Shown here in pieces: positions 7 to 58,922 of a DNA stretch of 64,000 nucleotides (its first letter is position 1; every line of letters starts with the position of its first letter). A program made the translations under genes and the position numbers. Source of the DNA: Candidatus Latescibacterota bacterium (GTDB taxonomy: Bacteria > Latescibacterota > UBA2968 > GCA-2709665). The stretch is taken from assembly GCA_965203805.1 (NCBI GenBank), contig OZ241917.1, positions 3,936,001-4,000,000 of the forward strand. The letters run 5' to 3'. The notes under the pieces are model-generated. The model worked only from the letters and a program-made list of their open reading frames with translations. It was not told the DNA's origin and did no database searches.

Positions 7-820
7 GTGATTTGGGCAGATGTAAGTTCAGGAGGTCTCGTAATGTCATTGCGAATAGTTCGTCACATCCAACGATACTGGAGAGGGTTACCTCCTACTG
101 GTTTTGCGTTTATATGCTTCGGGTTCTATGTACCAATGCCGCTCGAAGCCACAACACAGCAATACGCCAATGAGCTATATGAAACTGCGGTAGAGCAGGC
201 CGGTCGCGTCACCGTCGAGCAGAGCCTGGAGGCTTTCCAGCGAGTATTGAATTCGGACCGGGACTTTGCGCCGGCCCACTACGAAATCGCAATGCTTTAT
301 ATGTCCCTTGACACGCCCCTGGATCGCCAGAGCGCACGCAGGTCGCTGGATGATGCGATTCGGCTGGAGCCGGGCAACGGGGATTATCAACTGATGCTCG
401 GTGAGTTGCTCGGCAAGCAGGGACTCTGGCCAAATGCCGAAGGGCATTATGAGAAGATATACGAGAACTTTCCTGAACATCGCGCCCAAGCAGCTTACAT
501 GGTTGGATTTTTTCCGTGCAAGCTTTCCTGAAGTATCTTGAGATGGAGCCTGTAGAAATCGTCGCAGGTGGAGTAGGGTCGCCAACGTACCGCCATGTCC
601 GCTGGGAAGAACACGGAACGCGGGATAGAGATAAAGCACTGGCATTCCTGATAAAAAGCATCGAGGTCGATCCTGAAAATCGAGACGCGCATTACGACTT
701 GGGACTGATACACTATGAGAGCGAGAATCCGAGGGGGTTGGTATTGGCATCAAAGCCGTGCCTGGATCAGTTTCCCGAGGACAAGGACGCGTAGCTCAAT
801 TGTGGGTTGGGGTACCAATG
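7..820 (+). pseudogene. Decayed 5' fragment of a TPR + GWxTD family gene
   Basis: ORFs 7..531 and 516..794 join if one T is added to the T6 run at 508-513 (GFFSVQAFLKY). A TAG at 792-794 sits in DKDA*LNCGLGYQ where paralogs read DKDALLFCGLGYQ, and similarity stops near 820. The N-terminus closely resembles the 35178 gene (YETAxEQxGRVTVExS...APAHYEIAxLYxSLDTP). Confidence 0.8.
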
Positions 821-889
821 CAAACTCGACTTCCGGTTCAGGATAGCAATGGTCCGATTTGCATTTTTGAATGGCAGGAAGGTAACGTC

Positions 890-3800
890 ATGCGGTTGAT
901 CATTTGGAGTATTCTCGTATTCGCATTCTGCATTCTGGCAACCCCCTGTCTTGTCGAAGCGTCGGACCGTGATTATCTCACGGTAACGTCAGTGGCCGGG
1001 GATCAAGCAATTGCAGTCCAACGTGGCAAGGGTGCCACTTCCGTCACTGAAATCTGGATTGTCTCGTTTGAGGACACCCAACCCAGGAGGATCAAAACCT
1101 ACCTTGGAGAACTGGGCGATCTCTTTTTTGATCCAGCTGGCGATACCTTAATTTATCTGGAACGAAGCCTGCGACATCACGCCTGGGCATCCTATTACTA
1201 TGGTGGGCTGTCTCTTCCGATTGCAAGGAACACGGTGTGGAAGTTGAGCTTGCACGGCGGCGAAGAGGAAGAGTGGCCCCTTCCGAAGGATCTTCAACCT
1301 CTCCAATTCGGGCTTTCTCCTGATGGACGGTCATTGGCGGTCATTGGTTATCGACGCAGTGCTTTCGAGCGCACAAGACACGGCCTCTGGACAGTCGACA
1401 GACGGGGAGACATCAGGCTTTTGTTTGCTGGTAACGTAAGTGGGCCTGTCGATTGGTCAGATGATGGAAAAACTGTTTCATGCGGTGTCAAGGACGACGG
1501 GGAGGCGATCCGTGTTCACGTGGAGACGGGCGAAACTGTTCCGTCGATTCCGAAGGAAGGAATTCCTGCGAACGGAAGACAAGATCGAGATTCCTTGTCC
1601 AGGGCGAGGCCCACGAACGCTTTGCGTCAGTCCGATTCGTCAGATATCCCCCTACGTTTGATCAGTTCCGGCCTGAACCTATACATACGCGGCAGAAATG
1701 CCCTCCACAGAGGAAACGAAGACAATGCGAAAGAACTGTTCGAGCATGCCAGACGCGAATTCAAGAGACTCTACGATCAGGCCGCGACGTACGGATTGTC
1801 GAGGAATAGTTGCGCAAGATATATCAAAGCTTGTGAGATTTGGATCAAAGCAGACGCCAGGAAGGCCGACAGACGCAACTGCCAGGAGCGCTTGACGGGG
1901 ATGCTCCGGCTGATGGACGAATTCAAGCGCGCCCGGAACAACAACGAACCCGCGGACCTTGCTGAATTGCATCAGTGGGCAACGCGGAGGATTGTTGCAG
2001 ACGCGCCGGCAGGAAAGGAACTGGATGACAGGAAAGCGATCCTTGGCGTGCTGTTCTCGTGCCCGTCAAACCGGGACTACACATTTCTCAGCGATTATCT
2101 GTATAAGCACCAGGGATTGCCAGGCGCGCCGGCCCTGGCCTGTTTATGGCACCGCGGCGAGCAGATCGACGGTGTCGCGGACCTCAAGGGCGGTCACACG
2201 GAAATTTCGCGCATACCCGCAGCACGGGTCGACAGCCTGGCATCCACCGGGCGCCGCGCCATGGACGCGAATGAGCTGGACCGGGCGCGCCTGATCTACC
2301 GGAACGTCGCGCGTCAACGGCCGAGGGATCCCGACGCGTTTATCCACCTGGGTCACATTCTTCTGAAATTGAGACGATTCGAGGAATCGAAGGACGCGTT
2401 TTACCGCGCCATGATCCTCGGCAGCAAAGCGCTGGCGCACCACGGCCTGGGTATGCTTTACGCGATGTGGCCGATGCAGCGGCATTTCGCGATTCACCAT
2501 TTTACCGAAGCGTTGATCAAGGACCGGGACTTCGTGGACGCGCGATATCGGATGGCCAAAGTTCGTTATGAGATGAAACAGCGTGACGCGGAGCTGGAGC
2601 TGAAACGGGTTCTGAAAATGGACCCCGGCCACGCGGACGCTTATCTGATGATTGCGGACTATTACCTGAACCTGTCCTGGGAATTCGAGAAGGCCGTCGT
2701 GTGGTATACGAAATACCTCGCGCTTCGCCCGGAAGACGCGGCCGCGCAGCGCCGGCTGGGCGTTGCGTACCTGAAGGTGAGGGACTATTCGAAGATTATG
2801 GGCCACCTGCTGGACTTTGTCAGGAAACATCCGGAGTCCATCGAACTGATGCCGATCGTCGCTATTTCTGCCATCGAACAGGACAGTCTGGATATGGCAA
2901 TGAGGTTTTTCGAAGGCTACGTTGCCAGGGTTTCGCCCGATGTACGGCGTCGGTACGAAGATATATCACTCGTTGCTTCCAGGGATGAACTCAGGACCCT
3001 TGACGAAGCCGCGAATGCCCATCGCGAGACGTATTTGAGTCGTTTCTGGAATGGAAAGGACCCGGACCTGTCCACGTCCGTGAACGAGCGTCTGCTGGAA
3101 CACTACCGACGGGTCTGGTACGCGCTGACGGATTTTTCGGAGGGCAGGCAACCATGGGACGCGAGGGGCGAGGTCTACATTCGATTCGGGGAACCCGACC
3201 ACCGGTCCAGGTCGGACGACCCAAACTTCAGACAGAGCCTGGCGGTGCAGCGGGTCAAGGAGCGCCTTGCAATCAACATTTACAAGGGCGACGTACGGGC
3301 GCATACGTTCGTGGGTCCTGTTTATCCCATCCGCAGCATCAAACAGCTGGACGGCGCGTGGTACGACCTGAAGGACATCGGAATTGGAAACCCGAACGCA
3401 TCGGCGCGTGAACCGGGGGACGACGAGACTGGCACCCCCGACGACATGGGAAGAAGCTCTTCGGGTGATGAAGGAGTCACAGAGTCGTCGCCCGCACCAA
3501 ACGATACCGTCCGGTTCGGCATTTTGTCCTTGGACGAGCGCTTGGGATTCGGCGACTATCACCCGGTTACAGCTGGTGATGATCCGAGTACAGTGCCTTG
3601 GGAAACGTGGGTTTACACCGATGTGGCAGGCGGAGTTGAAATCACCTTTACCGACGAAATCGGTTCCGGGACCTACGATTACGCGCCCATGCCGCCCAAC
3701 CAGGGTGACATAGAGATCCGCCAGACCACTGCATTGAGAAGCCACTCACCAAGAGAGATCTACAAGAGAGCGGCACGTATAGCACCCAATTACTATCCGG

Positions 3801-4636
3801 CGGAATACGAGAATTCGCATCTTGACTTCCACTATTCACTGGCCGACTTCCGAGGTGAGGGCGACAAGAGCCTTCTCGAAATCTACTACGGCGTCCCGAT
3901 TTCCCCGGCCCACTACCAGGCGGACGAGGACGTCACGCGCCTGGTTCTGACGCACCACGCAGCACTGATTTCATCCGCGCTGGACACGGTCTATCGGAAG
4001 ACAAATGAGATTGACTACAAGGCTGAGGGTAATCAGGCCGGTGAAGGTCAGCTGGTGCCTGACGTGCTGAAATTGAACCTGCCGCCCGGCGCTTATCGTT
4101 TAGAGGTAAAGTCGCAGGATCGCGCAAAAGGGAGAATGGGCATCTATCAGCAACAGGTCGTGGTGGAGCCCTATGGCGGGGATGGATTGCAGATCAGCGA
4201 CCTGGAATTGGCCTGGAGGATTACTGCCGAAAAGTCGGAGGGCAGATTCGCCAAGGGAGATCTGCAAGTAATACCAATGCCTTCCCGGACATACCGGAAA
4301 GGCCAAAGCGTTTTTGTTTACTACGAGGTTTACAACCTGAAAAAAGACGAATTCGGACAGACGAACTACAATGTCTCCTATACGATCACATCCAGTGACG
4401 CACCTCAACAGGCGAGCAATATCTCTCGTCTGTTCAGATGGGGAACGGGCACGAGGGAAGAATTGGCCGTTTCGTACGAACAACTGGGTGACGCTGCTCG
4501 AGAAGTGGAATACGTGGAACTGGCGCTGGACGATCAGGTTCCAGGCCGATATTCATTGAAGGTTTCGATAAACGACAGGAACAGCGGCACTTCGGTGGAG
4601 AAAGACGCGGTCTTTGTCATTGCTCGAAAGGATTGA
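890..4636 (+). CDS. Exported multidomain TPR + GWxTD-type protein (long class: TolB-like region, pilin-like segment, TPRs, PWDxRG variant, C-terminal beta-sandwich region)
   Basis: Part of ORF 758..4636. ATG 890 follows GGAAGG and starts a signal peptide (MRLIIWSILVFAFCILATPC). Motifs: FWNGKDPDLSTSVNERLLEHYRRVWYA, PWDARGEVYIRFGEPD, LQISDLELAW, VFVYYEVYNL. Confidence 0.85.
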   Translation: MRLIIWSILVFAFCILATPCLVEASDRDYLTVTSVAGDQAIAVQRGKGATSVTEIWIVSFEDTQPRRIKTYLGELGDLFFDPAGDTLIYLERSLRHHAWASYYYGGLSLPIARNTVWKLSLHGGEEEEWPLPKDLQPLQFGLSPDGRSLAVIGYRRSAFERTRHGLWTVDRRGDIRLLFAGNVSGPVDWSDDGKTVSCGVKDDGEAIRVHVETGETVPSIPKEGIPANGRQDRDSLSRARPTNALRQSDSSDIPLRLISSGLNLYIRGRNALHRGNEDNAKELFEHARREFKRLYDQAATYGLSRNSCARYIKACEIWIKADARKADRRNCQERLTGMLRLMDEFKRARNNNEPADLAELHQWATRRIVADAPAGKELDDRKAILGVLFSCPSNRDYTFLSDYLYKHQGLPGAPALACLWHRGEQIDGVADLKGGHTEISRIPAARVDSLASTGRRAMDANELDRARLIYRNVARQRPRDPDAFIHLGHILLKLRRFEESKDAFYRAMILGSKALAHHGLGMLYAMWPMQRHFAIHHFTEALIKDRDFVDARYRMAKVRYEMKQRDAELELKRVLKMDPGHADAYLMIADYYLNLSWEFEKAVVWYTKYLALRPEDAAAQRRLGVAYLKVRDYSKIMGHLLDFVRKHPESIELMPIVAISAIEQDSLDMAMRFFEGYVARVSPDVRRRYEDISLVASRDELRTLDEAANAHRETYLSRFWNGKDPDLSTSVNERLLEHYRRVWYALTDFSEGRQPWDARGEVYIRFGEPDHRSRSDDPNFRQSLAVQRVKERLAINIYKGDVRAHTFVGPVYPIRSIKQLDGAWYDLKDIGIGNPNASAREPGDDETGTPDDMGRSSSGDEGVTESSPAPNDTVRFGILSLDERLGFGDYHPVTAGDDPSTVPWETWVYTDVAGGVEITFTDEIGSGTYDYAPMPPNQGDIEIRQTTALRSHSPREIYKRAARIAPNYYPAEYENSHLDFHYSLADFRGEGDKSLLEIYYGVPISPAHYQADEDVTRLVLTHHAALISSALDTVYRKTNEIDYKAEGNQAGEGQLVPDVLKLNLPPGAYRLEVKSQDRAKGRMGIYQQQVVVEPYGGDGLQISDLELAWRITAEKSEGRFAKGDLQVIPMPSRTYRKGQSVFVYYEVYNLKKDEFGQTNYNVSYTITSSDAPQQASNISRLFRWGTGTREELAVSYEQLGDAAREVEYVELALDDQVPGRYSLKVSINDRNSGTSVEKDAVFVIARKD

Positions 4637-4978: not shown

Positions 4979-7483
4979 ATGATTCGGATTCTTTATCACT
5001 CAGTTCTGGTTGCCGGCATTGGATGGGTTTGTCATGGAGACGTCGTAGCGACGGAATTATCCCGACAGACCGAAGTTCGGGTGAATCGGCTGTATGATGC
5101 CGGAATGGAACTGTTGAAGCAGGGCCGCCTGGTCGAGTCGGGAAAACAGTTTCGAAATGCAATTGAAATTAACGGGAAACATGTGCCCTCTTTTGTCGGC
5201 TTGGGTCACGTATACTTGAGGCAAGATAGTCTGAAGGCTGCCGAGCACGCCTTTATGAATGCCCGACATGTAGATGAAGAGTATGCGCCGGCCTATAACG
5301 GGTTGGGTTTGGTCTACTGGAAGAAGAAGACGGGACGCCTGTGGGCTATTCAATATTTCCGCACTGCGTACCAGCTCGATCGCGGTTATTCGGAGGCCTA
5401 TTACAATGCGGCTGAGGTCTACCGCGAGTTGGGCGATACGAAAGAGTTGGATACGTACGAGAGATTGGTGGACGCATCTCCCGGGCATCATGACGCCTGG
5501 TTCCGCATAGGGGAGATCCATCGAACGGGCGGAGCAGGACGGTATCCGAACTTGCTTGAAGCCGAAACAGCCTATCGAAAACAGCTTGATTCGAACACCG
5601 GCCACCGTGAGGCAAGGATCGGTCTGGCCGACGTGCTTGCCGGGCGAGGCGAAACCGATGAAGCGCTGGCCTTGTTGGAGGCGTTTGAAGATACCTCGGG
5701 CGTGCAAAGTCGTGAAGTTCTGTTACAACAGGCCAGGATTCATCAAATTCGCCGGGAGCCGGACAGGGCTGAGGCGCGTTATGAGAAATACATCGAATCG
5801 TTGGATCCGGAGGAGCAACTGTGTTATTTCGATCTCAGCCTCGTGGCGGCCGGTGCGGACCTGGAACGGTTCAGGTCGGCGCCGAAGTCGGAATGGAGGG
5901 AACTGTCGAACAGGTTCTGGGCGGGCAAGGACCCGGCGCCGGTGACGGCGGCGAACGAACGCCGTAACGAACACTTCCGGCGTGTTGCATTCTCCCGGGC
6001 GTCCTACGGCCAACACGCATTTCCATGGGATGTGCGAGGGGAAGTCTACGTCCGGTACGGGGAACCGGATCATGTCAGCAAGTCCGCTGATATCCAATTC
6101 GAGACGGCGCCCAGGGTCGTGGCGGTAAAGGAGCGCCTCGTCAATCAGGCCGGTGATGCTGTTTTTGCGTTAACGAAGAGCAGGGATGACGAGATGCTGG
6201 AATATATCGTCACGGAAACGATAAGTTACGCTGACCAGGACCGGGAGATTCAGATTGGACCGATGAGTTCCAGGCAGAGAGAGATCGCGGAGACCGGCAA
6301 TAGCCGCACTTATACTGCTTTAGATGACGACCCGATGGCAAAGATGCGAAAGAGCGGAATTAAACGCGACAAATTCGGAAGTCTTCAGGTGTCGTCGGCC
6401 AGTATTCTCGGATGGCCTGTACACCCCGTACCGGGCAAGGTCTGGGAGTACTGGATCTACACCGACGTTGGCCCGGGCGTTGAGATCACGTTTGTGCAGT
6501 CGTACCATCCCGGACCCTATACCTATGCGGATATGCCTCACGGGATTGGCGAGGGCGGCGGCAGCGTCTCTCGATCCTGGCGCGAGATGAATCCAGCGGT
6601 TGTGGTGAACAGGGCAATTGCGAAAACTCCTGAGGTGTACAGGCAGGATTTCGCAACCGCCCCACTGGATTTCTTCTATGATTCTGCGCGATTCAAGAGA
6701 GACGACCGTTCCGTAAATCTGGAGGTGTACTATGGTGTTCCAACGGGAGACATTGCCTACGAAGCGGGCGAGGATGGCCGGCGAACCGCGCGTTTGAGAC
6801 GGGGCGTCGCGTTGTTCGACGAGGCCGGGCGTCAGGTATACAGGTCCGATGATGACATGGAACTCTACGCAAGCGGGGACCCGGACACAATGGGCAAAGC
6901 TTTCGTGCCTTTTATGGACCGGATTTCGACCGCGCCGGGCAGATACCGGATGGCCGTTCAAATCTTGGATGTCTCGTCAGGAAAGTCACAGGTGTACAAT
7001 CAGCGGGTAGCAATCACCGCATACGGCGACAGCTATCTGCGCATCAGCGACATACAGTTGTCCGCCTTCATCCGCTCCGGAAGTGAGGGCAGGTTCCAGA
7101 AGGGTGATATCGACGTCGTGCCGAACCCGAGCCAGGCCTACATTTCCGGTCAACCAGTACATATCTACTATGAAATGTACAATCTGAAGAAGGATGAATT
7201 CGGCGTGGTACGTTATCGTGTTTCCTTTCAGGTCGAATCGATAGAGCAAAAGTCCATCGCCGTTCGAATTCTGGGAGGGATCGGCAAGTTGCTCGGCGGA
7301 AGGGAGGAGCGTGAGTCGATCACAGTCGATTACGAACATGTCGGACACCGTTCGGATGATCCTGGGTACCTGGAACTCGACATGACCAAGAGCGAACCGG
7401 GGAGGTACGTGCTGAGGATTAATGTAACGGACATGAATTCACGCCATGAAGCGGTCGCTTCCAAGCTCTTTACAATCAGGTAG
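4979..7483 (+). CDS. TPR + GWxTD-type protein (short class, PWDVRG variant)
   Basis: 834 aa ORF with an N-terminal hydrophobic signal and TPR helices (APAYNGLGLVY, SEAYYNAAEVY). Motifs: FWAGKDPAPVTAANERRNEHFRRV, PWDVRGEVYVRYGEPD, ISDIQL, IYYEMYNL. Confidence 0.85.
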   Translation: MIRILYHSVLVAGIGWVCHGDVVATELSRQTEVRVNRLYDAGMELLKQGRLVESGKQFRNAIEINGKHVPSFVGLGHVYLRQDSLKAAEHAFMNARHVDEEYAPAYNGLGLVYWKKKTGRLWAIQYFRTAYQLDRGYSEAYYNAAEVYRELGDTKELDTYERLVDASPGHHDAWFRIGEIHRTGGAGRYPNLLEAETAYRKQLDSNTGHREARIGLADVLAGRGETDEALALLEAFEDTSGVQSREVLLQQARIHQIRREPDRAEARYEKYIESLDPEEQLCYFDLSLVAAGADLERFRSAPKSEWRELSNRFWAGKDPAPVTAANERRNEHFRRVAFSRASYGQHAFPWDVRGEVYVRYGEPDHVSKSADIQFETAPRVVAVKERLVNQAGDAVFALTKSRDDEMLEYIVTETISYADQDREIQIGPMSSRQREIAETGNSRTYTALDDDPMAKMRKSGIKRDKFGSLQVSSASILGWPVHPVPGKVWEYWIYTDVGPGVEITFVQSYHPGPYTYADMPHGIGEGGGSVSRSWREMNPAVVVNRAIAKTPEVYRQDFATAPLDFFYDSARFKRDDRSVNLEVYYGVPTGDIAYEAGEDGRRTARLRRGVALFDEAGRQVYRSDDDMELYASGDPDTMGKAFVPFMDRISTAPGRYRMAVQILDVSSGKSQVYNQRVAITAYGDSYLRISDIQLSAFIRSGSEGRFQKGDIDVVPNPSQAYISGQPVHIYYEMYNLKKDEFGVVRYRVSFQVESIEQKSIAVRILGGIGKLLGGREERESITVDYEHVGHRSDDPGYLELDMTKSEPGRYVLRINVTDMNSRHEAVASKLFTIR

Positions 7484-7938: not shown

Positions 7939-8988
7939 ATGCGACGATATATCCTTTTTGTAATGTGTGCAATTGGCGCACTGCTGGCTTTTTGTCAAGA
8001 TTCGTTCGCACAACCCGCCGGCAATGCCGATTTCGACGGCAATGGCATCGTGGATTTCGGGGACTTCATTCTCTTCGCCCAGGCCTTCGGGTCGAATCAA
8101 TCTCAATTCGACCTCGACGGCAACAATAACGTGGATTTCCCGGATTTCATCCTCTTCGCGAGCCGGTTTGGGGAAGGTATGCCTGAAGAGAAGATTACCG
8201 TTACGCTTCCGGGAGGCGAAAAGCTGGAGATGGTCTGGATCCAAGCGGGCAGGTTCCTGATGGGATCGCCCGTTTCAGAACCCGGGCGCAGGGATGACGA
8301 AGGTCCCCGGCATGAAGTCACAATCACACAGGGATTCTACCTCGGAAAATACGAAGTCACCCAGGCGCAGTGGCAGAGCGTGATGAATACGCGTCCGTGG
8401 GAGCGATTGGGAGCAACCGATGAACTTGAGAAGGCAAAATACCCGGCTCGCAGCGCACGTTGGGAGTGGATACAGTCATTCATTCGGAGATTAAACCAGG
8501 CGGAAGGACGGGATATTTTCCGGTTGCCGACGGAGGCGGAGTGGGAATACGCGTGCAGGGCAGGCACTACGACACCGTGGTTTTTCGGAGCCGACTCGAG
8601 CCGTATCGGCGATTATGCCCGCTATCGTGAGAACTCTCGGACGGCGACGGTGATGCCCGACGGCCGCACTGTCTATGGAAGCCGGGAGCCTCAGGAGACG
8701 GGAGGCGTATTGCCGAATCCGTGGGGCCTATACGATATGTATGGAAATGTTATGGAATGGGTTCAGGATTACTGGGCACCGTATTCAGGAGAGGCACAGA
8801 TCGATCCCAAAGGGCCGCACGAGCCTGCCGAGTTTGACAATGTCAATGCGGGATGGCAGGGGTCATTCCATGTTGCCAGAGGGGGCTATTTTTTCGACAC
8901 CGCTCTCAGAATGCGGTCGGCGATGCGTGTTCGCGGTGCGGGTGCGAGTCACCGAATTGGGTTTCGTTTGCTGATGGAACATCGGTGA
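7939..8988 (+). CDS. Dockerin-like EF-hand + FGE-sulfatase (SUMF1/C-type lectin fold) protein, copy 1
   Basis: Signal peptide. Duplicated Ca-loop DFDGNGIVDFGDFILFAQAFG / DLDGNNNVDFPDFILFA. FGE motifs FLMGS, EGPRHEVTI, RLPTEAEWEYAC, NPWGLYDMYGNV, RGG, GFR. Confidence 0.9.
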   Translation: MRRYILFVMCAIGALLAFCQDSFAQPAGNADFDGNGIVDFGDFILFAQAFGSNQSQFDLDGNNNVDFPDFILFASRFGEGMPEEKITVTLPGGEKLEMVWIQAGRFLMGSPVSEPGRRDDEGPRHEVTITQGFYLGKYEVTQAQWQSVMNTRPWERLGATDELEKAKYPARSARWEWIQSFIRRLNQAEGRDIFRLPTEAEWEYACRAGTTTPWFFGADSSRIGDYARYRENSRTATVMPDGRTVYGSREPQETGGVLPNPWGLYDMYGNVMEWVQDYWAPYSGEAQIDPKGPHEPAEFDNVNAGWQGSFHVARGGYFFDTALRMRSAMRVRGAGASHRIGFRLLMEHR

Positions 8989-9212
8989 GTCGCCTGACGG
9001 CAAATCAGAATCAAAGGGGAGAGATCTTCATGTTCAGGTAAGGCGGTGGACATCGCCTTTTACGGGACTTGACTTATATCATATAATCATTCTTCTTATT
9101 CTTGGTGACGGATCTTGCTGGTTTCGACGTACCTGGGCTCTCTGAGATTCGAGTCCCTTCCCGGGATTCCCGTGCCTTTTCGCGTTAAGCGGTTTAAAGG
9201 AGCCGTGGAGAC

Positions 9213-10244
9213 ATGAGACGGAATACGTTCTCGCTGATATTCGCCGTTCTAGGTATGCTGAGCCTGAACCAGCTTGTGATGGCGCAGTCTCGCGATGCTG
9301 ATTTCGACGCCAACGGAATCGTGGACTTTGGGGATTTCATTTTGTTCGCGCAGGCTTTCGGGTCCGATCAATCCCAATTTGACCTCGACGGCAACGGAAG
9401 CGTGGACTTTCCGGATTTTATCCTTTTCGCGAAGCAATTCGGTGAGGGTCAGCCGGAAGAGGATATTACGGTGACGTTGCCCGGCGGCGCGAAGCTGGAG
9501 ATGGTCTGGATCCAGCCGGGACGCTTCCTGATGGGGTCGCCCGATTCTGAGCCCGACCGGGACGATCACGAGGGTCCCCGGCATGAAGTCACGATTACAA
9601 CGGGATTCTACATGGGCAAGCACGAAGTCACGCAGTCGCAATGGGAGAGCGTGATGAATACGCGTCCGTGGCTTATGGGAGTGGTTTCTCAGGTTCCCGG
9701 GAAAGAGAACTTTCCGGCGAATAGAATGCGCTGGCGCGAAATCGAGACATTCATTCGTGAATTGAACGAGGCCGAAGGATCGGATATTTTCCGGTTGCCC
9801 ACTGAGGCGGAGTGGGAATACGCATGCAGAGCAGGCACCAAGACCCCGTGGTCGTTCGGAAACGACACGACCCGTATCGCCGATTACGCGCGATATTTCG
9901 GGAACTCACGCGGTGCCACCATTCTGGACGACGGGCGAAGAGTCTTTGGACCTCCGGAGGTGCAGGAAACAGGGGGCGTTTTCCCGAACCCGTGGGGCCT
10001 ATATGATATGCACGGAAATGTACGGGAACTCGTGCAGGATTACTACGGTCCGTATTCGGAAGCGCCGCAGGTCGATCCCAAAGGGCCCGACGGACCCGCT
10101 GGAGGACGCACTTCGGATGGCAGCCGCGTTGTGAGAGGAGGATCGAGTTTCGACCGCCCCCCGTGGATTCGGTCGGCTGCCCGTTCGTTCGGGTGGGTGC
10201 CGGACGCATTCACCGGGTTTCGTTTGCTGATGGAACATCGATAG
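9213..10244 (+). CDS. Dockerin-like + FGE-sulfatase domain protein, copy 2
   Basis: Same motifs as copy 1, AAGGAG RBS, ends MEHR*. Confidence 0.9.
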   Translation: MRRNTFSLIFAVLGMLSLNQLVMAQSRDADFDANGIVDFGDFILFAQAFGSDQSQFDLDGNGSVDFPDFILFAKQFGEGQPEEDITVTLPGGAKLEMVWIQPGRFLMGSPDSEPDRDDHEGPRHEVTITTGFYMGKHEVTQSQWESVMNTRPWLMGVVSQVPGKENFPANRMRWREIETFIRELNEAEGSDIFRLPTEAEWEYACRAGTKTPWSFGNDTTRIADYARYFGNSRGATILDDGRRVFGPPEVQETGGVFPNPWGLYDMHGNVRELVQDYYGPYSEAPQVDPKGPDGPAGGRTSDGSRVVRGGSSFDRPPWIRSAARSFGWVPDAFTGFRLLMEHR

Positions 10245-10373
10245 ATCAAGCGACGAAAGATACGTGGTTTCTTCCCGGTTGTCTGCGACGTACCTGGGCT
10301 CTCCGAGATTCGAGTCCCTTCCCGGGATTCCCGTGCCTTTTCGCGTTAAGCGGTTTAAAGGAGCCGTGGAGAC

Positions 10374-11405
10374 ATGAGACGGAATACGTTCTCGCTGATA
10401 TTCGCCGTTCTGGGTATGCTGAGCGTGTACCAGCTTCTGATAGCGCAGTCTCGCAACCCCGATTTCGACGCCAACGGAATCGTGGATTTTGGGGATTTCA
10501 TTTTGTTCGCGCAGGCCTTCGGGTCGAATCAATCCCAATTCGACCTCGATGGCAGCAAAAGGGTGGATTTTCCGGATTTCATCCTCTTTGCCAAGCGCTT
10601 CGGGGAGGGTATGCCTGAAGAGAAGATTACGGTTACGCTTCCGGGAGGCGCAATGCTGGAGATGGTGTGGATCCAACCGGGCAGGTTCCTGATGGGTTCG
10701 CCTCTTACAGAAGGAGAACGAGATGACGACGAGGGTCCCCAACATGAAGTCACGATCACGAAGGGGTACTATCTAGGCAAATACGAAGTGACGCAGGCAC
10801 AGTGGGAAAACGTGGTAAACACACGTCCGTGGCTAGTGGGATCGACTTCCGAGGTAGCAGGGAGAGAAAACTTTCCGGCAAATAGAATGCGCTGGCACGA
10901 AGTCCAGACATTTTTCCAAAGATTGAACGAATTGGAAGGAACTGATGTCTACCGACTACCGACGGAGGCGGAGTGGGAATACGCATGCAGGGCTGGCACC
11001 ACGACTCCGTGGTCATTTGGAGCAGACTCGTCTCGTATTGCCGATTACGCGCGATATTATGAGAACTCCCGTTCGTCAGTCGTCCTTGAAGACGGGCGCA
11101 CAGTCTACGGAAGCCCAGAGGTACAGGAAACCGGGGGCGGATTCCCGAACCCGTGGGGCCTGTACGATATGCACGGGAATGTAAGGGAGCTCGTGCAGGA
11201 TTACTATGGACCGTATTTGGAAGCGCCACAGGTTGATCCCCAAGGGCCCGACGGCCCCTCTGGAAGACGATTTCCACAATACAGTCACGTCGAAAGAGGA
11301 GGTTCTGGTTTCGACCGCCCAGTGGGGATAAGGTCGGCTGCACGATCCCTCGGTTGGATACCCAATGCCTTCACCGGGTTTCGCGTTGTGATGGAACATC
11401 GATAG
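10374..11405 (+). CDS. Dockerin-like + FGE-sulfatase domain protein, copy 3
   Basis: Same motifs. Upstream region nearly identical to that of copy 2. Confidence 0.9.
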   Translation: MRRNTFSLIFAVLGMLSVYQLLIAQSRNPDFDANGIVDFGDFILFAQAFGSNQSQFDLDGSKRVDFPDFILFAKRFGEGMPEEKITVTLPGGAMLEMVWIQPGRFLMGSPLTEGERDDDEGPQHEVTITKGYYLGKYEVTQAQWENVVNTRPWLVGSTSEVAGRENFPANRMRWHEVQTFFQRLNELEGTDVYRLPTEAEWEYACRAGTTTPWSFGADSSRIADYARYYENSRSSVVLEDGRTVYGSPEVQETGGGFPNPWGLYDMHGNVRELVQDYYGPYLEAPQVDPQGPDGPSGRRFPQYSHVERGGSGFDRPVGIRSAARSLGWIPNAFTGFRVVMEHR

Positions 11406-11533
11406 ATCAAGCGACGAAAGATACGAGGTTTCTTCCGGGTTGTCTGCGACGTACAGGGGCGCTCGGCGATTCGAGTCCCGCCCGCGATTCGGTGGCCGTT
11501 TCGGGATAAGCAGTTAAACGGAGCCGTGGAACC

Positions 11534-12565: not shown

Positions 12566-12693
12566 ATCAAGCGACGAAAGATACGAGGTTTCTTCCGGGT
12601 TGTCTTCGACGTACAGGGGCGCTCGGAGATTCGAGTCCCGCCCGCGATTCGGTGGCCGTTTCGGGATAAGCAGTTAAACGGAGCCGTGGAGCC

Positions 12694-24395: not shown

Positions 24396-24553
24396 CGACG
24401 GCGCCCGGTCACCTGACGAATAGAGATTCATGTAAGGTCAAGGATGTCATCAGCGGCGAAACCGCCGAGAAGGAAGCCGGGTTCGTCATCGCGGAATAGG
24501 ATTGGCAGACAAAACCCGTCGCGCGTTCGATCGGTCGGAAGGGAACAGTGACG

Positions 24554-51602: not shown

Positions 51603-54600
51603 ATGGTACCAGTACTTGAATCTGCGCGCGTGAAATTTTGGCGTCCGGCCCTGTTTTCGGCCGTGATCATCGCCGCGTCCTGCCCCCTGGGGGGACTCGG
51701 CGCGGAAGTTCGTCAAACCGTGATATCGGCCTCCGGCAGGGGGCAAACCGCGTGGGCGGTCGGGCTGGAAACGGGTTCGTCCGCCATTACTGAGATCTGG
51801 GTCGAAACCCGTGGAAGCCAGCCTCGCCACCTCGGTACCTTTCCCGGCCCGCCAGGGCGACTGGAGTGGGTTGCGCACGGGGAACGTCTTCGCTTTCAGG
51901 AGACTGCCTTAAAGGTCCCCCTGCATACGCTTACCGTGCTCCCGAACAGGTCCTTGCCGCTGGTCGCATCGGGCGTCTGGGAGATCTCCGTTCTGGACGG
52001 ATCGATCGCGCGTTCGAAAACAGACTTCGAGGCGGAACCGGTAACGCCGCCGGTCGTGGCGACCCGAAACGCGCCGCGCCCGAGTCCGGCTGCCAAGGCC
52101 GTGCTGTGGGGCGTTGCGACGGCATTCAACGCCTCGGCCCTGGCCTACACCACCGTGCACCGCTGGGAATTCCGATCGGCGGTAAAGCGTTACCGGAAAG
52201 CCTCCCGGGCGTGGGCGGCCCTGCCTCCCAGATTTAAAAAGTACGGGCTCTACGAAGAGCCGGTGCTGTCCTACGCGGAGGCGCTGGCCGCAACCGCCAG
52301 GAAGGCCGGGGCAAGGCGCGGCGCCCGCTGGGTCTGCGAGGACCATCTGACCGTCATTGGCGACGCCCTCTCTGCATACGAGAAGGCTCATGAAGACCAG
52401 CGGCCGACCGACCTGGCGGCCCTAAAGGCGTGGATCGAAACCCATACGCTCACACCGGCGGACTCGACCGTTCTGAAGACGCTGTTTCGCTCGGCGAAAG
52501 ACCCTGAAAAAAGGCCGCCGGATCAGCTACACGCACGGATACCGCCCGGAAGCCGGGGACGGCGAAGCCGTTGTCACCAGTTTCTTCCACGACGGTTACC
52601 TGGTTGAAGCCGTCCGCAGCAGCACGGGATATCGCACCGTCGACCGGCGCGTGGGCAAGGCGCAGATCGACTCCCTCCTCTACCTCGGCACTGAACTCAC
52701 CCCGCATGAGCCGCTGCGGGCGATCTCCACCCTTGAAATCCTGGCCGGCGTGGCTCAGGATTACGCCCGCGGGCACAGCGGGCTCGGGTTCGCCTATCTG
52801 GAGGCGGAGAAGCTGGAGCGCGCCGTCAAATCCTTCGAACGCGCGATCGAATGCGACCACACGCTGGCCGAGGCCTACTTCGGCCTGGGTCTCACCTTCC
52901 GCAAATGGCCCAGGGGAAATTACGACGCCATCCGCTATTTCCAGAAAGCCCTCCAGTACGACCGGCACCACGTGGAAGCAAGGTTCAATATTGCCGATAT
53001 CCGGTACAAACTGGACGAACACGACGTACGGCGGGAAGTCAAAAAAGTACTGGCAATTGACCCCCGCTACGCGCCCGCCTATCTGCTGATGGGGAAATGG
53101 GTGGAGGAATTCGAGAAAAACTACGAGAAAGCCGCGCTCTACTATGCGAAGTATATGGGCTTGCGGCCCGGCGACCCGGAGGGGCGCAAGCGGCTGGGAT
53201 CAATCTACCTGAGAACGAAGGACTACGGCCGCATCCTGGAAGTCCTGGAGGATTACGCCATAGAGAATCCGGACGACGACCAGGTGCTGCCCATCCTGGC
53301 CCAGGCCTGCATGAAACTGGGGGCCTATGACAGGGCCGCCGCCTTCTTCAGAGACTTTCTCGAAGGGGCCGATGCGGCCGAGAAGGGGCACTACCACGAT
53401 ATCCGGCTGGTGGCGCCCAAGGAGACGCTGGCGGCCTTCGAACAGACGCCGCCGGAAGAACGATGGGACTTTGTGAGGAAGTTCTGGGCGGACCAGGACC
53501 CGGACCTGACCACGGCCGCCAACGAGCGCCTCCTGGAGCACTACCGGCGGGTGTCGTTCGCCATGCAGAATTTCTCCGAAGGCAGGCGGCCCTGGGACCA
53601 GCGCGGCGAAGTCTACATCCGCTTCGGTGAACCCGATCACCGCTCCACTTCCAAAGAGTTGAACTTCCAGCAATCCATGGCGGTTCAGCGGGTCAAGGAA
53701 CGCCTTTCCAGGACGCTCTACGGGGCTGCGCGCCCGCCGCGCCGTGGAATCGGCCTTCGCGGCGCCAGTTCAACGTTCGTCGGTCCGGTTTATCCCGTGC
53801 GCAGCCAGGGCGGCAGGGGTCCGGGGGGGTCCTACAGACCGGTCACGGCGACGTACGACGGCTCGATGGTCCCGTGGGAAACGTGGACGTACGTCGACGT
53901 GGGCAGCGGCATCGAGATTACCTTCACCGACGAGTTCAGCAACGGAAACTACAACTATGCGCCTGAACCGCTGGATGCCGGGATTCCCGCCCGCCGGCTG
54001 GCCATGTTTACCCGCTACAGCCCCCGCAATATCTACCGCATGGCCGCCGCGGCGCAGCCGAACTACTTCGTGCGGCCGAAAAACACGCTACCGATGGAAT
54101 TCTATTTCAACTCGGCTGACTTCAGGAGTGAAACGGATTTCCGGACCGCGCTGGAAGTCTACGTGGGGATACCGCGGCACCAGGGGCACTATATGATCGA
54201 TGACGACCGGACGGAAATATTGGTCGACCGGACCGTGGCGCTGCGAAATCCGGCAACCGGAGCGGTCTACCGCAGCGAGGACAAGGTACAATTCGCGGCC
54301 GAGGGGGACGTGACCGCGGAACGCAGCGCGTTCGTGCCGGACCTCGCGCGGCTGGACGTGCCCCCCGGGCGTTACAGGATGGAAGTGAAGATAAAGGATA
54401 ATCTGTCCGTTCAGCACGGGCGGTACCGTCAGGACATTGAAATCGAGTCCTATGAACGGCACAGCCTCCAGGTGAGCGACCTGGAACTGGCGTGGCGGAT
54501 ATCCAACCGCAAGGACGAGGATAAATTCAACAAAGGCACACTGTGGGTCATTCCGATGCCGACGCGGACCTACAGGGTAGGACAGAATGTATTCGTCTAC

Positions 54601-54909
54601 TACGAAATCTATAACCTGACGAAGGACGATTTCGGGCAGACGAACTACCAGGTATCCTATACCGTCACGAAGAAGGGCGGCTTCAGCCCCCTGGGTATCA
54701 TTAGCAGCCTTATAAGGTGGAAGAAGGGCAAGCGTGAAGAGCTGGAAGTGACGTACGAGATGGTGGGCGAGGATAACATGGAAGTCGAATACGTGGAACT
54801 CGAGCTGGAGAACCGCCCTGCGGGCAAGTATTTCCTGAACGTCACCGTCATCGATATGAATAGCGGTGAGTTGGCCCAGAAGCAGGCCAGTTTCATCCTC
54901 GCGCAGTAG
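51603..54909 (+). pseudogene. Long-class TPR + GWxTD-type gene with a frameshift in an A6 run (52507-52512)
   Basis: ORFs 51498..52607 and 52651..54909 fuse if one A is removed, giving DPEKGRRISYTHGYRPEA versus the paralog DPEEDRLISYTHGYRREA. PWDQRGEVYIRFGEPD present. Could be a sequencing error. Confidence 0.75.
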
Positions 54910-54990
54910 GATCAGGATTAGAGACCGAAAACAGGATCAGGATTTGCAGGATTAGAGGATTAAGCAGGATTAGAGAACAAAATCAGGATC
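54908..54990 (+). repeat. Degenerate (C)AGGATT short-repeat cluster
   Basis: About 8 AGGAT(T/C) units directly after the stop codon. Confidence 0.6.
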
Positions 54991-55184
54991 GAAATCGAGC
55001 AGGAAAAGGCCAGGAGCAGGGCCGATGCTCACGATTCCGGTCCATAGAGATAAATCCGAATCCCTGCAGACCTCGCGTCGTCACTCCGGCTATTCAGATT
55101 CCGTGTTTCATTAACCTCAATTCGAAAAAAGAAACACGTTTTACGTTCGTGATCCGATTTGCCGACGCTTCGGGAGATTTCGTG

Positions 55185-58100
55185 ATGCATTGGATGAAGA
55201 TCCTACTCATAGGCGCGGGTGGCGCCCTGATCATGCCGGGAGAAGCCGCGTCGGCGTCTGGCGGGGTCCCCACCGCGAGTACGGCGGATGGCGGGCACGT
55301 CGCCTATGCTGTCCGGCGGGGCGACGGGTCGATTTCGATATCGGAAATATGGGTTGCCTCGCAACAGGACAACGGAGCCAGGAAGATCGCGGCCTATCCC
55401 GGAGAACCCGGCGGTCTCTGTTTCCATCCGGACGGAAGCGCGCTGATCTATCTCGAGCGAAGCCTGCGGCGGGAAGCGTGGGGGTCGTACTTCTACGGCG
55501 GGCAGTCGCTTCCGATAACGAGAAACAGAATCCGGAAGTTGAGTCTGGACGGCGCGAGACAGGAAACGTGGCCGCTCCCGGGCGACTTTCAACCCCTCGA
55601 ATTCGCGCCTTCTCCCGATGGACGGTCGTTGGCGATTGTCGGGTATCGGGGGAATCCGTTCGAGCGTACCGGCCACGGGCTTTGGGTCGCGGACGATCAC
55701 GGCGGCGTCAGGCCCCTGTTCGAGGGAAACGCCGCGGGCCCGTTGAACTGGTCGCCTGACGGGACGGCGGTATTTTTCCGCATGGCGGATGGCTCGGGAT
55801 CGATCCGTGTTGACATCGCCAGCGGAGAGAACTTTCGATCTGATCCGCCCAACCATATACCAAAAAGAGGTTATCCGGATCGCGAGGCCGTTTTCCGGCC
55901 GAATCCGGGTGCGGTTCCGGGTGGGGACGACGCGATCGATTCCGCCCTGGGGGTGATCGGCACCGGACTGGACCTGTTTATTCGCGGCAGAAATGCGCTC
56001 CACAGAGGAAACGAAGCCAGCGCGGAAAAACGGTTCCAGCAGGCCAGGAGTGCATTCAAGAAGCTCTTTGATCGGGCGCCGAAGTACGGGATGTCCAGGA
56101 AGGGCTGGGCAAGGTATATCGAAGTCTGCGAAGACTGGATCGATGCAGACAGCAACACGGCGCACAGACGCAACTGCCAGGAGCGCCTGGCGGGGATGCT
56201 CCGGTTGATGGTGGCGTTCGAGCGCGACCGGAACGGGGACGAACCGGAGGACCTTGCCGAATTGCATCAGTGGGCGACGCGGAAAATCGTTGCAGAGTCG
56301 CCGGCCGGAAAGGAACGGGATGACAGGAAGGCGATCCTTGGCGTGCTGTTCTCCTGTCCGTCAAACCGGAACTATACATTTCTCAGCGATTACCTGTATA
56401 AGCATCAAGGGTTGCCCGGCGCGCCGGCCCTGGCCTGTTTCTGGCACCGCGGCGAACAGGTCGCCGGCATGGCCGGACGCGATGGCGTTCACACGGAGAT
56501 TTCACGCATACCCGAAACACGGGTCGACAGCCTGGCATCCAGCGGGCGCCGCGCCATGGCCGCGAATGAGCTGGACCGGGCGCGCCTGATCTACCGGAAC
56601 GTCGCGCGTCAACGGCCGAGAGAACCGGACGCATATGTCCACCTGGGTCACATTCTCCTTGACTTGAAACGATTCGAGGAATCGAAAGACGCGTTTCACC
56701 GCGCCATGACCCTGGGTAGCAAAGCGCTTGCCCACCACGGCCTGGGAATGCTCTACGCCACGTGGCCGATGCAGCGCCATTTCGCGATTCACCACTTTAC
56801 AGAGGCGCTGGTCAGGGACCGGGACTTTGTGGACGCGCGATTTCGGATGGCCAAAGTCCGTTATGAGATGAAACAGCGTGACGCGGAGCTGGAGCTGAAA
56901 CGGGTCTTGAAGATGGACCCCGGCCACGCGGACGCTTATCTGATGATTGCAGACTACTATCTGAATCTGTCGTGGGAATTCGAAAAGGCCGTTGTCTGGT
57001 ATACGAAGTACCTCGCGCTTCGTCCGGAAGACGCCGACGCGCAGCGAAGGCTGGGGGTTGCATACCTGAAGGTCAGAGAGTATTCGAAGATTATGGACCA
57101 CCTGCTGGACTTCGTGAGAAAGTACCCCGAAGCCATCGAGTTGATGCCCATTGTCGCCGTTTCCGCCATGGAACAGGAAGAGCCGGCAATGGCAATGGCG
57201 TTCTTCGAAGACTACATTGACAAACTTGCGCCGGATGAAAGACGATTGTACGAAGATATATCGCTGGTTGCCTCCGGCGAGGAACTCAGGACGTGCAACG
57301 AGGCACTGGGCGCCCACCGTGAGACCTGTCTGCAGCGATTCTGGAATGGAAAGGACCCGGACCTGTCCACGGCCGTGAACGAGCGGCTGCTGGAACACTA
57401 CCGAAGGGTCTGGCACGCGCTGACGGAATTCTCGGAAGGCAGGCGCCCGTGGGACGCCAGGGGTGACGTCTACGTCCGATTCGGAGAACCCGATCACCGG
57501 TCCAGGTCGGACGAACCCAACTTCAAGCAGAGCCTGAAAGTACAGCGGGTCAAGGAGCGGCTCGCGTTCAATATCTACAAAGGCGATGTCCGCGCGCACA
57601 CGTTCGTCGGCCCTGTATATCCCGTTCGCAGCCTCAAACAGTTGGATGGCGCCTGGTATGAACTGAAAGAATTCACAATCGAGAACGCAGATCCATCGGC
57701 GTGTGAGATTGCCGGCATGACGAACGAAGGTACGGAGGCGGCCGACGCCGACCTTAATCAAGATGGAGGAAGCGAGTCTTTTTTCGTCAATGACGATTCC
57801 TTGAAGATCGGTATCCTGCCCCTTGACGAAAGCCTGGGATTCGGCGACTATCACCCGGTTACGACCGACGAAGATCGCAGCACCGTGCCCTGGGAGACCT
57901 GGATCTATACCGACGCCGGCGGCGGCATTGAAATCACTTTTACCGACGAAATTGGTTCCGGCGCGTACGATTACGCGCCCATGCCGCCGAACCAGGGAGA
58001 TATATCCATAGGCGAAACCGCTGCGCTGAGCAGGCACGCGCCCCATTCGGTCTACAGGCGTGCGGCTCGGGCCACACCCGATTTCTATGCACCGAAACAT

Positions 58101-58922
58101 GAGACGCCGCCCCTCGATTTCCACTACTCGCTGGCCGACTTCAAGGGCGAGGACGATAACAGCCTTCTCGAAATCTACTACGGCGTCCCCGTCGTCCCGG
58201 CGCATTACGTTGCGGCGGAGGATGTCACTCGGCAGGTCCTGACGCACCATGCGGCGCTCATTTCGTCGTCGCAGGATACCGTGTACAGGGAGACGGATGA
58301 AATGACCTACGAAGCCGCCGGAAACCGGGCCGAAGAAGGCCTGCTGGTACCGGACGTCCTGAAGGTGGACCTGCCGCCCGGCGCCTATCGTCTGGAGGTG
58401 AAGTCTCAGGACCGCCTGAGAGGAAAAATGGGCATCTATCAGCAGCAGGTTGTCGTGGAACCATATGGCGAAGATCGCCTTCAGATCAGCGACCTGGAGC
58501 TGGCCTGGCGGGTTGGCGCGGAAGATGCGGAGAGCAAGTTTACGAAGGGATCCCTGAACGTTGTCCCAATGCCGTCCCGAACGTACCGGAAGGGGCAGAG
58601 CGTGTTCGTCTACTACGAGATCTACAACCTGGAGAAAGACGAATTCGGACAGACCGGCTACAACGTCTCCTACACCTTTGCGTCGAAAGACACACCCGGG
58701 CAGGCGGGAAACATCTCACGCCTGTTCCGTTGGGGAACCGGCAAACGCGAGGAACTGGCGGTCACGTACGAACAGCAGGGTGAGGCCGCCCGCGAGAACG
58801 AATACGTCGAACTCGCACTGGATGAACAGGTCCCGGGGCGATATTCGCTGAAAGTGTCGATTAACGACAAGAACAGCGGCGAATCGGCGGAGAAAGAGGC
58901 GACGTTCGTCATCTCGCGATAG
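55185..58922 (+). CDS. Long-class TPR + GWxTD-type protein, close paralog of the 890 gene
   Basis: Part of ORF 55149..58922. Long near-identical peptide blocks with 890..4636. PWDARGDVYVRFGEPD. Confidence 0.88.
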   Translation: MHWMKILLIGAGGALIMPGEAASASGGVPTASTADGGHVAYAVRRGDGSISISEIWVASQQDNGARKIAAYPGEPGGLCFHPDGSALIYLERSLRREAWGSYFYGGQSLPITRNRIRKLSLDGARQETWPLPGDFQPLEFAPSPDGRSLAIVGYRGNPFERTGHGLWVADDHGGVRPLFEGNAAGPLNWSPDGTAVFFRMADGSGSIRVDIASGENFRSDPPNHIPKRGYPDREAVFRPNPGAVPGGDDAIDSALGVIGTGLDLFIRGRNALHRGNEASAEKRFQQARSAFKKLFDRAPKYGMSRKGWARYIEVCEDWIDADSNTAHRRNCQERLAGMLRLMVAFERDRNGDEPEDLAELHQWATRKIVAESPAGKERDDRKAILGVLFSCPSNRNYTFLSDYLYKHQGLPGAPALACFWHRGEQVAGMAGRDGVHTEISRIPETRVDSLASSGRRAMAANELDRARLIYRNVARQRPREPDAYVHLGHILLDLKRFEESKDAFHRAMTLGSKALAHHGLGMLYATWPMQRHFAIHHFTEALVRDRDFVDARFRMAKVRYEMKQRDAELELKRVLKMDPGHADAYLMIADYYLNLSWEFEKAVVWYTKYLALRPEDADAQRRLGVAYLKVREYSKIMDHLLDFVRKYPEAIELMPIVAVSAMEQEEPAMAMAFFEDYIDKLAPDERRLYEDISLVASGEELRTCNEALGAHRETCLQRFWNGKDPDLSTAVNERLLEHYRRVWHALTEFSEGRRPWDARGDVYVRFGEPDHRSRSDEPNFKQSLKVQRVKERLAFNIYKGDVRAHTFVGPVYPVRSLKQLDGAWYELKEFTIENADPSACEIAGMTNEGTEAADADLNQDGGSESFFVNDDSLKIGILPLDESLGFGDYHPVTTDEDRSTVPWETWIYTDAGGGIEITFTDEIGSGAYDYAPMPPNQGDISIGETAALSRHAPHSVYRRAARATPDFYAPKHETPPLDFHYSLADFKGEDDNSLLEIYYGVPVVPAHYVAAEDVTRQVLTHHAALISSSQDTVYRETDEMTYEAAGNRAEEGLLVPDVLKVDLPPGAYRLEVKSQDRLRGKMGIYQQQVVVEPYGEDRLQISDLELAWRVGAEDAESKFTKGSLNVVPMPSRTYRKGQSVFVYYEIYNLEKDEFGQTGYNVSYTFASKDTPGQAGNISRLFRWGTGKREELAVTYEQQGEAARENEYVELALDEQVPGRYSLKVSINDKNSGESAEKEATFVISR

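Follow-up and report, generated by a model that had tools for sequence, protein, structure and literature searches.

An array of GWxTD-domain genes in a Latescibacterota genome: candidate periplasmic adaptors of outer-membrane barrel modules

Introduction

SusC/SusD-type uptake loci serve as one comparison system for the locus described here, a 64,000-nt stretch of Candidatus Latescibacterota DNA on contig OZ241917.1 (the whole stretch is called the window). It carries ten co-oriented paralogous genes, copies A to J, for probably exported proteins that join tetratricopeptide repeats (TPR) to a GWxTD domain. The GWxTD family (TIGR04514, PF20094) has no assigned function, and a paper on the domain was not found in the literature searched; supplements, which may hold annotation tables listing such genes, lay outside that search. 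Among described systems, the PorP/SprF-type pairs of Flavobacterium johnsoniae combine a type IX cargo with a cognate shuttle barrel (accessible text of PMC12618676), and the Oar subclass of TonB transporters in Myxococcus xanthus has a described N-terminal extension (accessible text of PMC6434023). Vibrio cholerae RbmA is a tandem FnIII scaffold (accessible text of PMC5605196). In ten metagenome-assembled genomes (MAGs) of sponge Latescibacterota, TPR was reported as the main eukaryotic-like domain; in the accessible text of that paper TPR is only counted, and its main text contains no Kelch, dockerin or type IX (PMC12993501). Type IX systems may also occur in other phyla of the Fibrobacteres–Chlorobi–Bacteroidetes (FCB) group (accessible text of PMC11285876).

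Within the GWxTD family, all ten copies pass TIGR04514, and they differ from typical members in that six of the ten carry PWDxRG instead, the GWxTD domain precedes an immunoglobulin-like (Ig) pair, and TPR, propeller-like and cysteine-containing (Cys) domains have been added. Copy number also differs, at 24–36 matches per genome in this genus versus 0–6 in other classes of the phylum. Some GWxTD genes lie beside outer-membrane operons that resemble the cognate cargo–shuttle pairs, since they join a cargo gene with a C-terminal-domain (CTD)-like end to its own PorV/PorQ-family (NF033709) barrel gene. However, the barrel is PorV/PorQ-like rather than PorP, a TonB transporter and a small barrel stand in the same operon, and the GWxTD protein is not a CTD cargo by profile. 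The linked transporters share with Oar a CarboxypepD_reg N-terminal extension and a plug, whereas no GWxTD partner appears in the accessible text of the Oar paper (PMC6434023). Unlike SusC/SusD loci, these operons gave no match to the SusD family among the neighbours scanned. When structures were searched with the Ig pair, RbmA came first in Foldseek and was the best two-domain hit in VIA, but with a TM score of 0.35 or less, a root-mean-square deviation (rmsd) of 10–11 Å and 11–15% identity; hydrolase Ig domains taken singly reach equal scores, and RbmA is without a GWxTD or TPR part. The joint expansion of TPR and Kelch proteins in this sponge-associated lineage is like that of sponge-symbiont eukaryotic-like proteins.

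We tentatively favour, at somewhat less than an even chance, the reading that the array proteins are soluble periplasmic adaptors of outer-membrane barrel modules and that the array is a pool of variants. By way of its invariant W/D/R/H/R/G residues, the core would dock on the periplasmic face of the TonB-dependent transporter, most likely on the CarboxypepD_reg extension, or on that of the PorV/PorQ barrel. Which partner is chosen would depend on the TPR, propeller-like and Cys domains, and the window copies, which have no adjoining transporter, would be variants working in trans with the co-encoded Kelch, CAP and formylglycine-generating-enzyme (FGE)-fold proteins. We infer export, periplasmic retention and docking, and the surface of the partner is a guess. 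The diversified recognition or scaffold repertoire that the initial annotation had suggested may likewise describe what the array does.

Transporter–cargo–PorV operons

The genome holds six paralogous operons, each encoding a CarboxypepD_reg TonB transporter, an exported cargo protein of ~800 amino acids (aa) with a CTD-like end and a PorV/PorQ barrel; in most of them a small barrel gene comes first. Genome coordinates are written as C1:, and all other coordinates are window positions.

C1:1882288-1889851, transporter–cargo–PorV/PorQ operon
C1:2096327-2103712, transporter–cargo–PorV/PorQ operon
C1:2525287-2533525, transporter–cargo–PorV/PorQ operon
C1:2914141-2921351, transporter–cargo–PorV/PorQ operon
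C1:4443154-4450696, transporter–cargo–PorV/PorQ operon
C1:5002461-5008939, transporter–cargo–PorV/PorQ operon

The cargo protein matches no known family and no structure in the PDB. Its CTD-like end was judged by eye, and it is absent from the TIGR04183 matches.

A co-oriented GWxTD gene is found within 6 kb of four of the six operons, at distances of 85 and 398 nt in two cases (rotation mean 0.18, P ~0.001). Of the 48 PorV/PorQ genes in five other genomes, seven have a GWxTD gene within 12 kb (rotation mean 1.06, P 0.0005), a distance that was picked after seeing the data, with genome lengths rounded. The slot after PorV is occupied by a short Ig-Ig-GWxTD form in four genomes (G029, G024, G030, G078), with the short form 3 kb further on in two genomes of another family (G061, G062), and by a GWxTD-Ig-Ig form in three (G017, G022, G038). 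The order transporter–cargo–PorV–GWxTD was seen in 8/8 loci picked for it and in 2/6 picked blind; six of these ten carry the short form and four the long order. Sixteen of the 70 loci selected only for their likeness to copy I have a PorV gene on the same strand, including nine relatives at 44–53% identity. In a tree of 34 cores, five window copies group with a module-linked copy in a starred clade.

Several observations weigh against this link. No such operon lies in the window, and none of the ten window copies is module-linked, compared with 5 of the 25 others in the genome (5/35 in all). Four window copies with a GWxTD-type motif belong to a clade without a module-linked member, and the short form encoded by this genome has housekeeping genes around it. 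In two of the five other genomes, 0/11 PorV genes (G016) and 0/5 (G065) are near a GWxTD gene. Eight of the 14 slot loci were chosen because their coordinates already suggested the link; of the six blind picks, two show it. Distant short GWxTD genes were read at the 35 of 80 metagenome loci that were long enough; the full order occurs there in two near-identical loci, a transporter is near in about five, and the neighbours (58 scanned of 91 listed) are mostly housekeeping genes. The cargo profile was built from the source genome, and its co-occurrence with GWxTD partly tracks kinship and represents few independent events; nine GWxTD-bearing genomes have no cargo match at 1e-10. Co-dependence of GWxTD and PorV was considered and rejected, because PorV is found in 139/140 genomes and so does not need GWxTD.

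A more elaborate version of the adaptor reading, which we regard as doubtful, sees in GWxTD-Ig-Ig a new fold that serves as a periplasmic docking module and can be circularly permuted. The module would complete an undescribed five-gene machine for import or surface display, composed of a small barrel, an Oar-like TonB transporter, a type IX-exported surface protein with its own PorV/PorQ barrel, and the GWxTD adaptor. Such a machine would be the type IX-based equivalent of SusC/SusD. The adaptor would have left the operon in sponge-associated Latescibacterota and grown into a recombining library of 24–41 variants, which would retune a few transporters together with Kelch and FGE-fold partners.

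Distribution in the phylum

The source genome contains 35 GWxTD matches in 35 separate frames, clustered partly at this locus. All 14 congeners contain 24–36 matches, and 26 further relatives in the order contain 8–41. Across the phylum, 60 of 140 genomes match, in a survey that counted up to 31 matches per genome. The families f1, f2 and f3 match in 52/52 genomes and f4, of the same class, in 0/63, while nine genomes of other classes have 1–6 matches each. A high copy number is therefore routine in the genus, and the locus is not the exceptional expansion that it had been taken for; a paper already describing it did not turn up in the literature searched. The cargo family occurs in 52/140 genomes, of which 51 are GWxTD-positive, and in 1/63 genomes of f4. 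A short-form GWxTD profile found no match in 5/5 complete f4/f9 genomes, in a search that had no positive control.

These counts bear on another explanation, namely that GWxTD proteins are assembly chaperones for outer-membrane proteins or lipoproteins, like BamD/BamE or pilotins, with one variant per client. The combination of TPR with a small alpha/beta subdomain, the barrel and lipoprotein genes nearby, and the higher number of PorV copies where GWxTD has expanded (2–14 in f1/f2 versus 1–3 in f4) fit this idea. However, f4 builds PorV barrels without any GWxTD, which makes a chaperone role less likely. A likeness to the BamE/SmpA/BLIP fold, suggested by a motif, found no support, as no such chain is among the 50 rows listed and there is no Pfam match at E 1 or better. 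We consider this explanation quite improbable.

Export signals

A hydrophobic, signal-peptide-like N-terminus is present in 10/10 copies according to a simple hydropathy heuristic, with no later membrane segment. This agrees with the export proposed initially and indicates that the array proteins are likely exported by Sec. The genome itself encodes SprA (621 bits, cut-off 200) and has 13 matches to type A CTDs. None of the 35 GWxTD genes is among these 13 TIGR04183 matches, and HHalign of the second Ig domain to 12 of the genome's own CTDs gave a probability of 0.64, so the C-terminal Ig domain was rejected as a type IX signal. The F-x-V/I residues, noted at first as the end of the C-terminal region, are the last strand of an Ig-like domain. 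That profiles detect no type IX signal is consistent with proteins kept in the periplasm.

Domain structure

Ten of the 37 open reading frames (ORFs) of the window scanned with Pfam and NCBIfam profiles pass TIGR04514 (43.7–63.2 bits, cut-off 28), all on the + strand and all with TPR matches, in agreement with the ten co-oriented paralogs first noted. Pfam PF20094 lists 7/10 copies, of which two exactly reach the cut-off of 26.9 bits and five fall below it; three are unlisted. The motifs NER..[EA]H..RV, SD[LI].[LM][AS] and Y[YLF]E[IVM]Y[NG]L are each present in 10/10 copies. The eponymous motif, of which a similar form was said to be shared, is literal in only three, with GCQTE in one and PWDxRG in six at the aligned site. 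Among 34 cores with 28% mean column identity, W49, D53, R63, R70, G89 and G96 are invariant and E66 and H67 are conserved to at least 90%; in a 133-row alignment, D57, R67, H71 and R74 are conserved to at least 90%. A further conservation table was set aside as partly circular, since the motif had served to anchor 274 of its 343 sequences. The core matches 13,994 clusters (50% identity) at E 0.001 or better, and public relatives carry the name 'GWxTD domain-containing protein'.

The AlphaFold2 model of the copy I core (pLDDT 87.9, pTM 0.81) has a helical and alpha/beta GWxTD part (1-240) followed by two beta-sandwiches, so that a three-domain GWxTD-Ig-Ig fold is predicted. The GWxTD domain of copy F, folded alone (174 residues), reached pLDDT 93.1. 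This model had no Foldseek match at E 0.001 in the PDB or among viral models, and 0/48,161 chains aligned at Z 5 or above; the best one (Z 4.3, rmsd 3.2, 65 aligned) is an unrelated helical bundle. Sequence searches of solved structures with queries A2, A3, A5 and A6 gave nothing below E 0.03, and Atlas matches for the GWxTD part were all <0.8. This absence of a structural match is no proof of a new fold. The Ig sandwiches match generic Ig domains (best Z 11.1, rmsd 2.6, 96 aligned), and such domains are found alongside glycoside hydrolases (top VIA rows at Z 10–11, rmsd 2.5–3.0, ~100 residues). The modelling proposed for the GWxTD core and the C-terminal domains thus left the former matchless and identified the latter as generic Ig.

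In the only short copy of the genome (458 aa) the order is reversed, with the Ig pair first and the GWxTD domain last. Both parts are homologous between short and long copies (HHalign 99.9), and HHalign also relates one Ig domain to the other (88 and 93). The occurrence of one module in two domain orders suggests that it works as a unit. Six distant metagenome loci (L173, L183, L189, L194, L195, L215) have two GWxTD genes followed by a 740–770 aa Ig-only frame, and in three of them a stand-alone Ig-pair gene precedes; the module can therefore also be split over genes.

The conserved residues could also belong to an enzyme or a ligand-binding site of an undescribed fold, in which the N-E-R-x-x-E-H-x-x-R helix and the W-D/T-x-R-G turn would act on an envelope glycan, peptide or metal while the Ig pair and TPRs position it. 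This is an unlikely explanation, although polar residues are kept across very divergent copies in both alignments, the matching Ig domains go with hydrolases and the family is large. No enzyme fold matched the GWxTD domain, large insertions vary freely in its middle, and buried polar networks can be structural.

The five long copies (A, C, D, I, J) add propeller-like repeats and the Cys domain, which has no family match. The latter (56121-56498 in copy J, with equivalents in A, C, D and I) spans ~125 residues and has up to three conserved cysteines and one histidine, with a single cysteine in the D/I lineage. A resemblance to pilins was considered and rejected, since the domain had no Pfam, PDB or Atlas match.

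Gene content of the array

The array-related features of the window are as follows; start positions were inferred for copies A, C, F, G, H, I and J, the CAP lipoprotein and Kelch lipoprotein 2.

1..824 (~19-824), +, decayed 5' TPR-GWxTD fragment (signal peptide and first TPRs); tblastn 34–46% to copies E–H in two frames, frame change near 510-530, then stops
890..4636, +, copy A, long form: signal peptide, propeller-like repeats, Cys domain, TPR, GWxTD (PWDARG), Ig-Ig; TIGR04514 54.2 bits
4753..4824, +, 3' scar of an E/H-type copy; tblastn, 90% over 83 nt to the end of copy H
4979..7483, +, copy B: TPR-GWxTD (PWDVRG)-Ig-Ig; TIGR04514 46.3 bits; sister of the upstream copy at C1:3906726
7939..13734, +, five tandem exported FGE/sulfatase-modifying-fold genes with an N-terminal dockerin-like EF-hand segment; PF03781 130–141 bits; NF041540 20–23 bits, below the cut-off of 29
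13887..17636, +, copy C, long form (PWDVRG); TIGR04514 61.0 bits
17660..19300, +, lipoprotein-like ORF of 546 aa upstream of copy D; at the locus in 3/5 congeners
19546..23034, +, copy D, long form (PWDQRG), in-frame TGA at 20107-20109; TIGR04514 63.2 bits
23298..24395, +, Kelch-repeat lipoprotein 1; Kelch Pfam matches, best PDB matches are Kelch propellers
24413..24504, +, 3' scar of a D-type copy; blastn 94% over 69 nt to the end of copy D
24548..26965, +, ADOP-like duplicated MacB/FtsX permease; TIGR03434 257 bits, cut-off 622.3
27553..29922, +, copy E: TPR-GWxTD (GWQTD)-Ig-Ig; TIGR04514 49.2 bits
30338..32674, +, SLBB-Tcp10 repeat-CAP lipoprotein (Pfam), paired with copy F
32778..35003, +, copy F: TPR-GWxTD (GCQTE)-Ig-Ig; TIGR04514 57.5 bits
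35178..37619, +, copy G: TPR-GWxTD (GWRTD)-Ig-Ig; TIGR04514 50.7 bits
37673..40045, +, copy H: TPR-GWxTD (GWRTD)-Ig-Ig; TIGR04514 43.7 bits
40368..41456, +, Kelch-repeat lipoprotein 2 (Pfam)
51603..54909, +, copy I, long form (PWDQRG), frameshift near 52507; TIGR04514 61.3 bits
55185..58922, +, copy J, long form (PWDARG); TIGR04514 47.0 bits
58951..60033, +, Kelch-repeat lipoprotein 3 (Pfam), 29 nt 3' of copy J
60665..62257, +, exported 530 aa protein with weak C-terminal FN3 likeness (FN3 chains at E 0.013 or worse)
63274..64000, +, Kelch-repeat lipoprotein 4 (Pfam), cut by the window end; three more beyond

The decayed fragment and the two 3' scars noticed initially were thereby confirmed by tblastn and blastn, whereas two of the ten copies called near-full, D and I, are broken. 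The array is present in the window but does not begin there, as four further GWxTD copies adjoin it directly upstream and a fifth lies 17 kb beyond. The 546 aa ORF and the 530 aa protein have no match in Pfam or NCBIfam, and an Rfam scan of the window gave zero matches.

A zinc-uptake island on the - strand (41539-51015) lies inside the array and contains AztA/B/C-like ATP-binding-cassette (ABC) genes, a Fur-family regulator, a CobW GTPase, a WD40-like ORF, a TonB receptor and a PepSY membrane protein; it and its siderophore-type transporter are judged to be unrelated to the GWxTD array. Sequencing runs X4, X11 and X19 skip 47769-48481 within it. A gene for an XRE-type helix-turn-helix (HTH) protein at 62456-63172, flanked by the 530 aa gene and the Kelch run, is kept there in 4/5 congeners and is possibly a local regulator. 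Short intergenic repeats at 47780-47920, 51290-51480, 54925-54975, 60340-60580 and 63180-63225, with 9–55 blastn matches each in the genome, are possibly miniature mobile elements or recombination sites.

Turnover and selection

Copies D and I are whole frames of 1131–1187 codons in congeners. The TGA of copy D stands where a paralogue has TGG, and whole frames of 1179–1185 aa were found in three congeners. Copy I has an extra base near 52507, while its orthologues in four congeners, 87–97% identical, are whole. A contig of run X1, possibly the source sample, spans 51337-56590 without any difference, and the extra base is absent in X4 and X11, which indicates that the frameshift is a real, sample-specific loss. 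Contigs of the RNA run X19 cover copies I and J, yet with depth in all 30 bins including intergenic ones, so that they do not establish transcription of these two copies.

The array persists in 5/5 congeners fetched, with its order and content shuffled; two of them have a second D-like gene after copy D and Kelch. Copy A shares 94% identity with J copies over residues 501-600 but only 80% with its own orthologue, a sign of gene conversion. In 19 orthologue pairs of six copies (D not included), the ratio of nonsynonymous to synonymous substitution (dN/dS) was 0.11–0.30, with some dS values saturated; the array copies are under purifying selection. On the tree of cores, from which the short form was left out, the ten window copies need five label changes, at least four of them forced by starred branches, suggesting that several old lineages have come together at the locus instead of arising there in a single burst. 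The birth-and-death evolution proposed at the outset is thus supported by the shuffled order, the scars, the sample-specific frameshift, the converted segment and the dN/dS values.

That the array is an assembly artefact or neutral debris might be suspected from the 9.3% contamination of the genome and from the two broken copies, the fragment and the two scars. However, the cores of the ten copies are only 22–73% identical (45 pairs), the array recurs in the congeners, independent runs cover copies I and J, and dN/dS is low. An artefact is largely refuted and, in our view, hardly credible.

Divergence is fastest in the N-terminal domains, at 58–87% identity versus 74–94% for TPR, as might be expected if the array encoded surface-exposed or released host-interaction proteins of a sponge symbiont, with a eukaryotic-like set of TPR and Kelch repeats diversified for host or phage partners. 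The window DNA was found in 20 of the 21 runs listed, from seven studies, and the labelled ones are sponge, marine and coral metagenomes. The TPR counts in sponge Latescibacterota (PMC12993501, accessible text) and the match of the whole Ig pair to a biofilm scaffold, RbmA (TM 0.35; Z 10.5, rmsd 10.1, 196 aligned), point the same way. However, no outer-membrane export signal was found in the proteins by profile, the RbmA match is generic, and the whole-gene dN/dS gives no sign of diversifying selection at that scale. In addition, a copy I relative labelled as a lake-water MAG (L101) adjoins PorV and cargo genes. A host-directed role is therefore, like the enzyme, an unlikely explanation. Other loci with related genes are labelled Ca. 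Latescibacterota or Gemmatimonadota.

Neighbouring genes

Regions within 6 kb of a GWxTD gene make up 5.9% of the genome, and they contain 8/11 FGE-fold genes (three loci), 5/10 Kelch genes (all at the window locus) and 3/4 homologues of the 530 aa protein. PF19572 matches were near GWxTD genes in three of five cases. Three of four CAP lipoprotein paralogues abut a GWxTD gene, at three separate loci. The association with Kelch, lectin-fold (here FGE-fold) and CAP lipoprotein genes seen in the initial annotation is borne out by this enrichment. The MacB-type permease, also listed there as a partner, fared otherwise: 1/18 ADOP-like paralogues is within 6 kb, the gene is at the locus in 3/5 congeners and does not reach the ADOP permease family TIGR03434, and its linkage is likely incidental. 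In the 70 loci resembling copy I, the same-strand neighbours include Kelch in 19, FGE-fold in 17, transporter in five and ADOP in four.

True FGE has a catalytic cysteine pair. The five FGE-fold proteins have one cysteine in the mature part, and they are thus likely not formylglycine-generating enzymes. Their dockerin-like N-terminal segment is matched by ~50 proteins of the genome.

The pattern AAC-N15-18-CGT, which we take to be of the extracytoplasmic-function (ECF) promoter type, occurs in 6/35 GWxTD upstream regions versus 16% of background, with approximate starts, and no shared ECF promoter was found upstream of the 35 genes. Enriched upstream words stem from recent duplicates. At one locus (L017:6534-10923), genes for an ECF sigma factor and a zinc-finger anti-sigma factor lie directly upstream of two GWxTD genes. 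At L013:5495-8086, a UshA-like (seleno)protein gene with a cytochrome c554 region (below cut-off) is upstream of a GWxTD gene. Eight kb upstream of the array, L014:4388-7335 holds a gene for a DUF4297 anti-phage-associated protein (over cut-off) and a HerA gene split into two frames, adjoining polysaccharide-synthesis genes. At L004:9749-15154, transposase-like frames, recognised by eye, flank a GWxTD gene beside a transporter operon.

Implications

New here are the permuted core and an operon of five genes that includes a type IX-type cargo and a PorV/PorQ barrel; the array, ordinary for its genus, is undescribed in the literature searched. The permuted core and the conserved operon slot give the orphan GWxTD family named candidate partners, which can be tested with recombinant proteins even though the host is uncultured. 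The six transporter–cargo–PorV operons are worth study as a system of their own. The copy count also suggests that part of the load of TPR eukaryotic-like proteins in sponge Latescibacterota is this family, which may work inside the envelope and not on the host.

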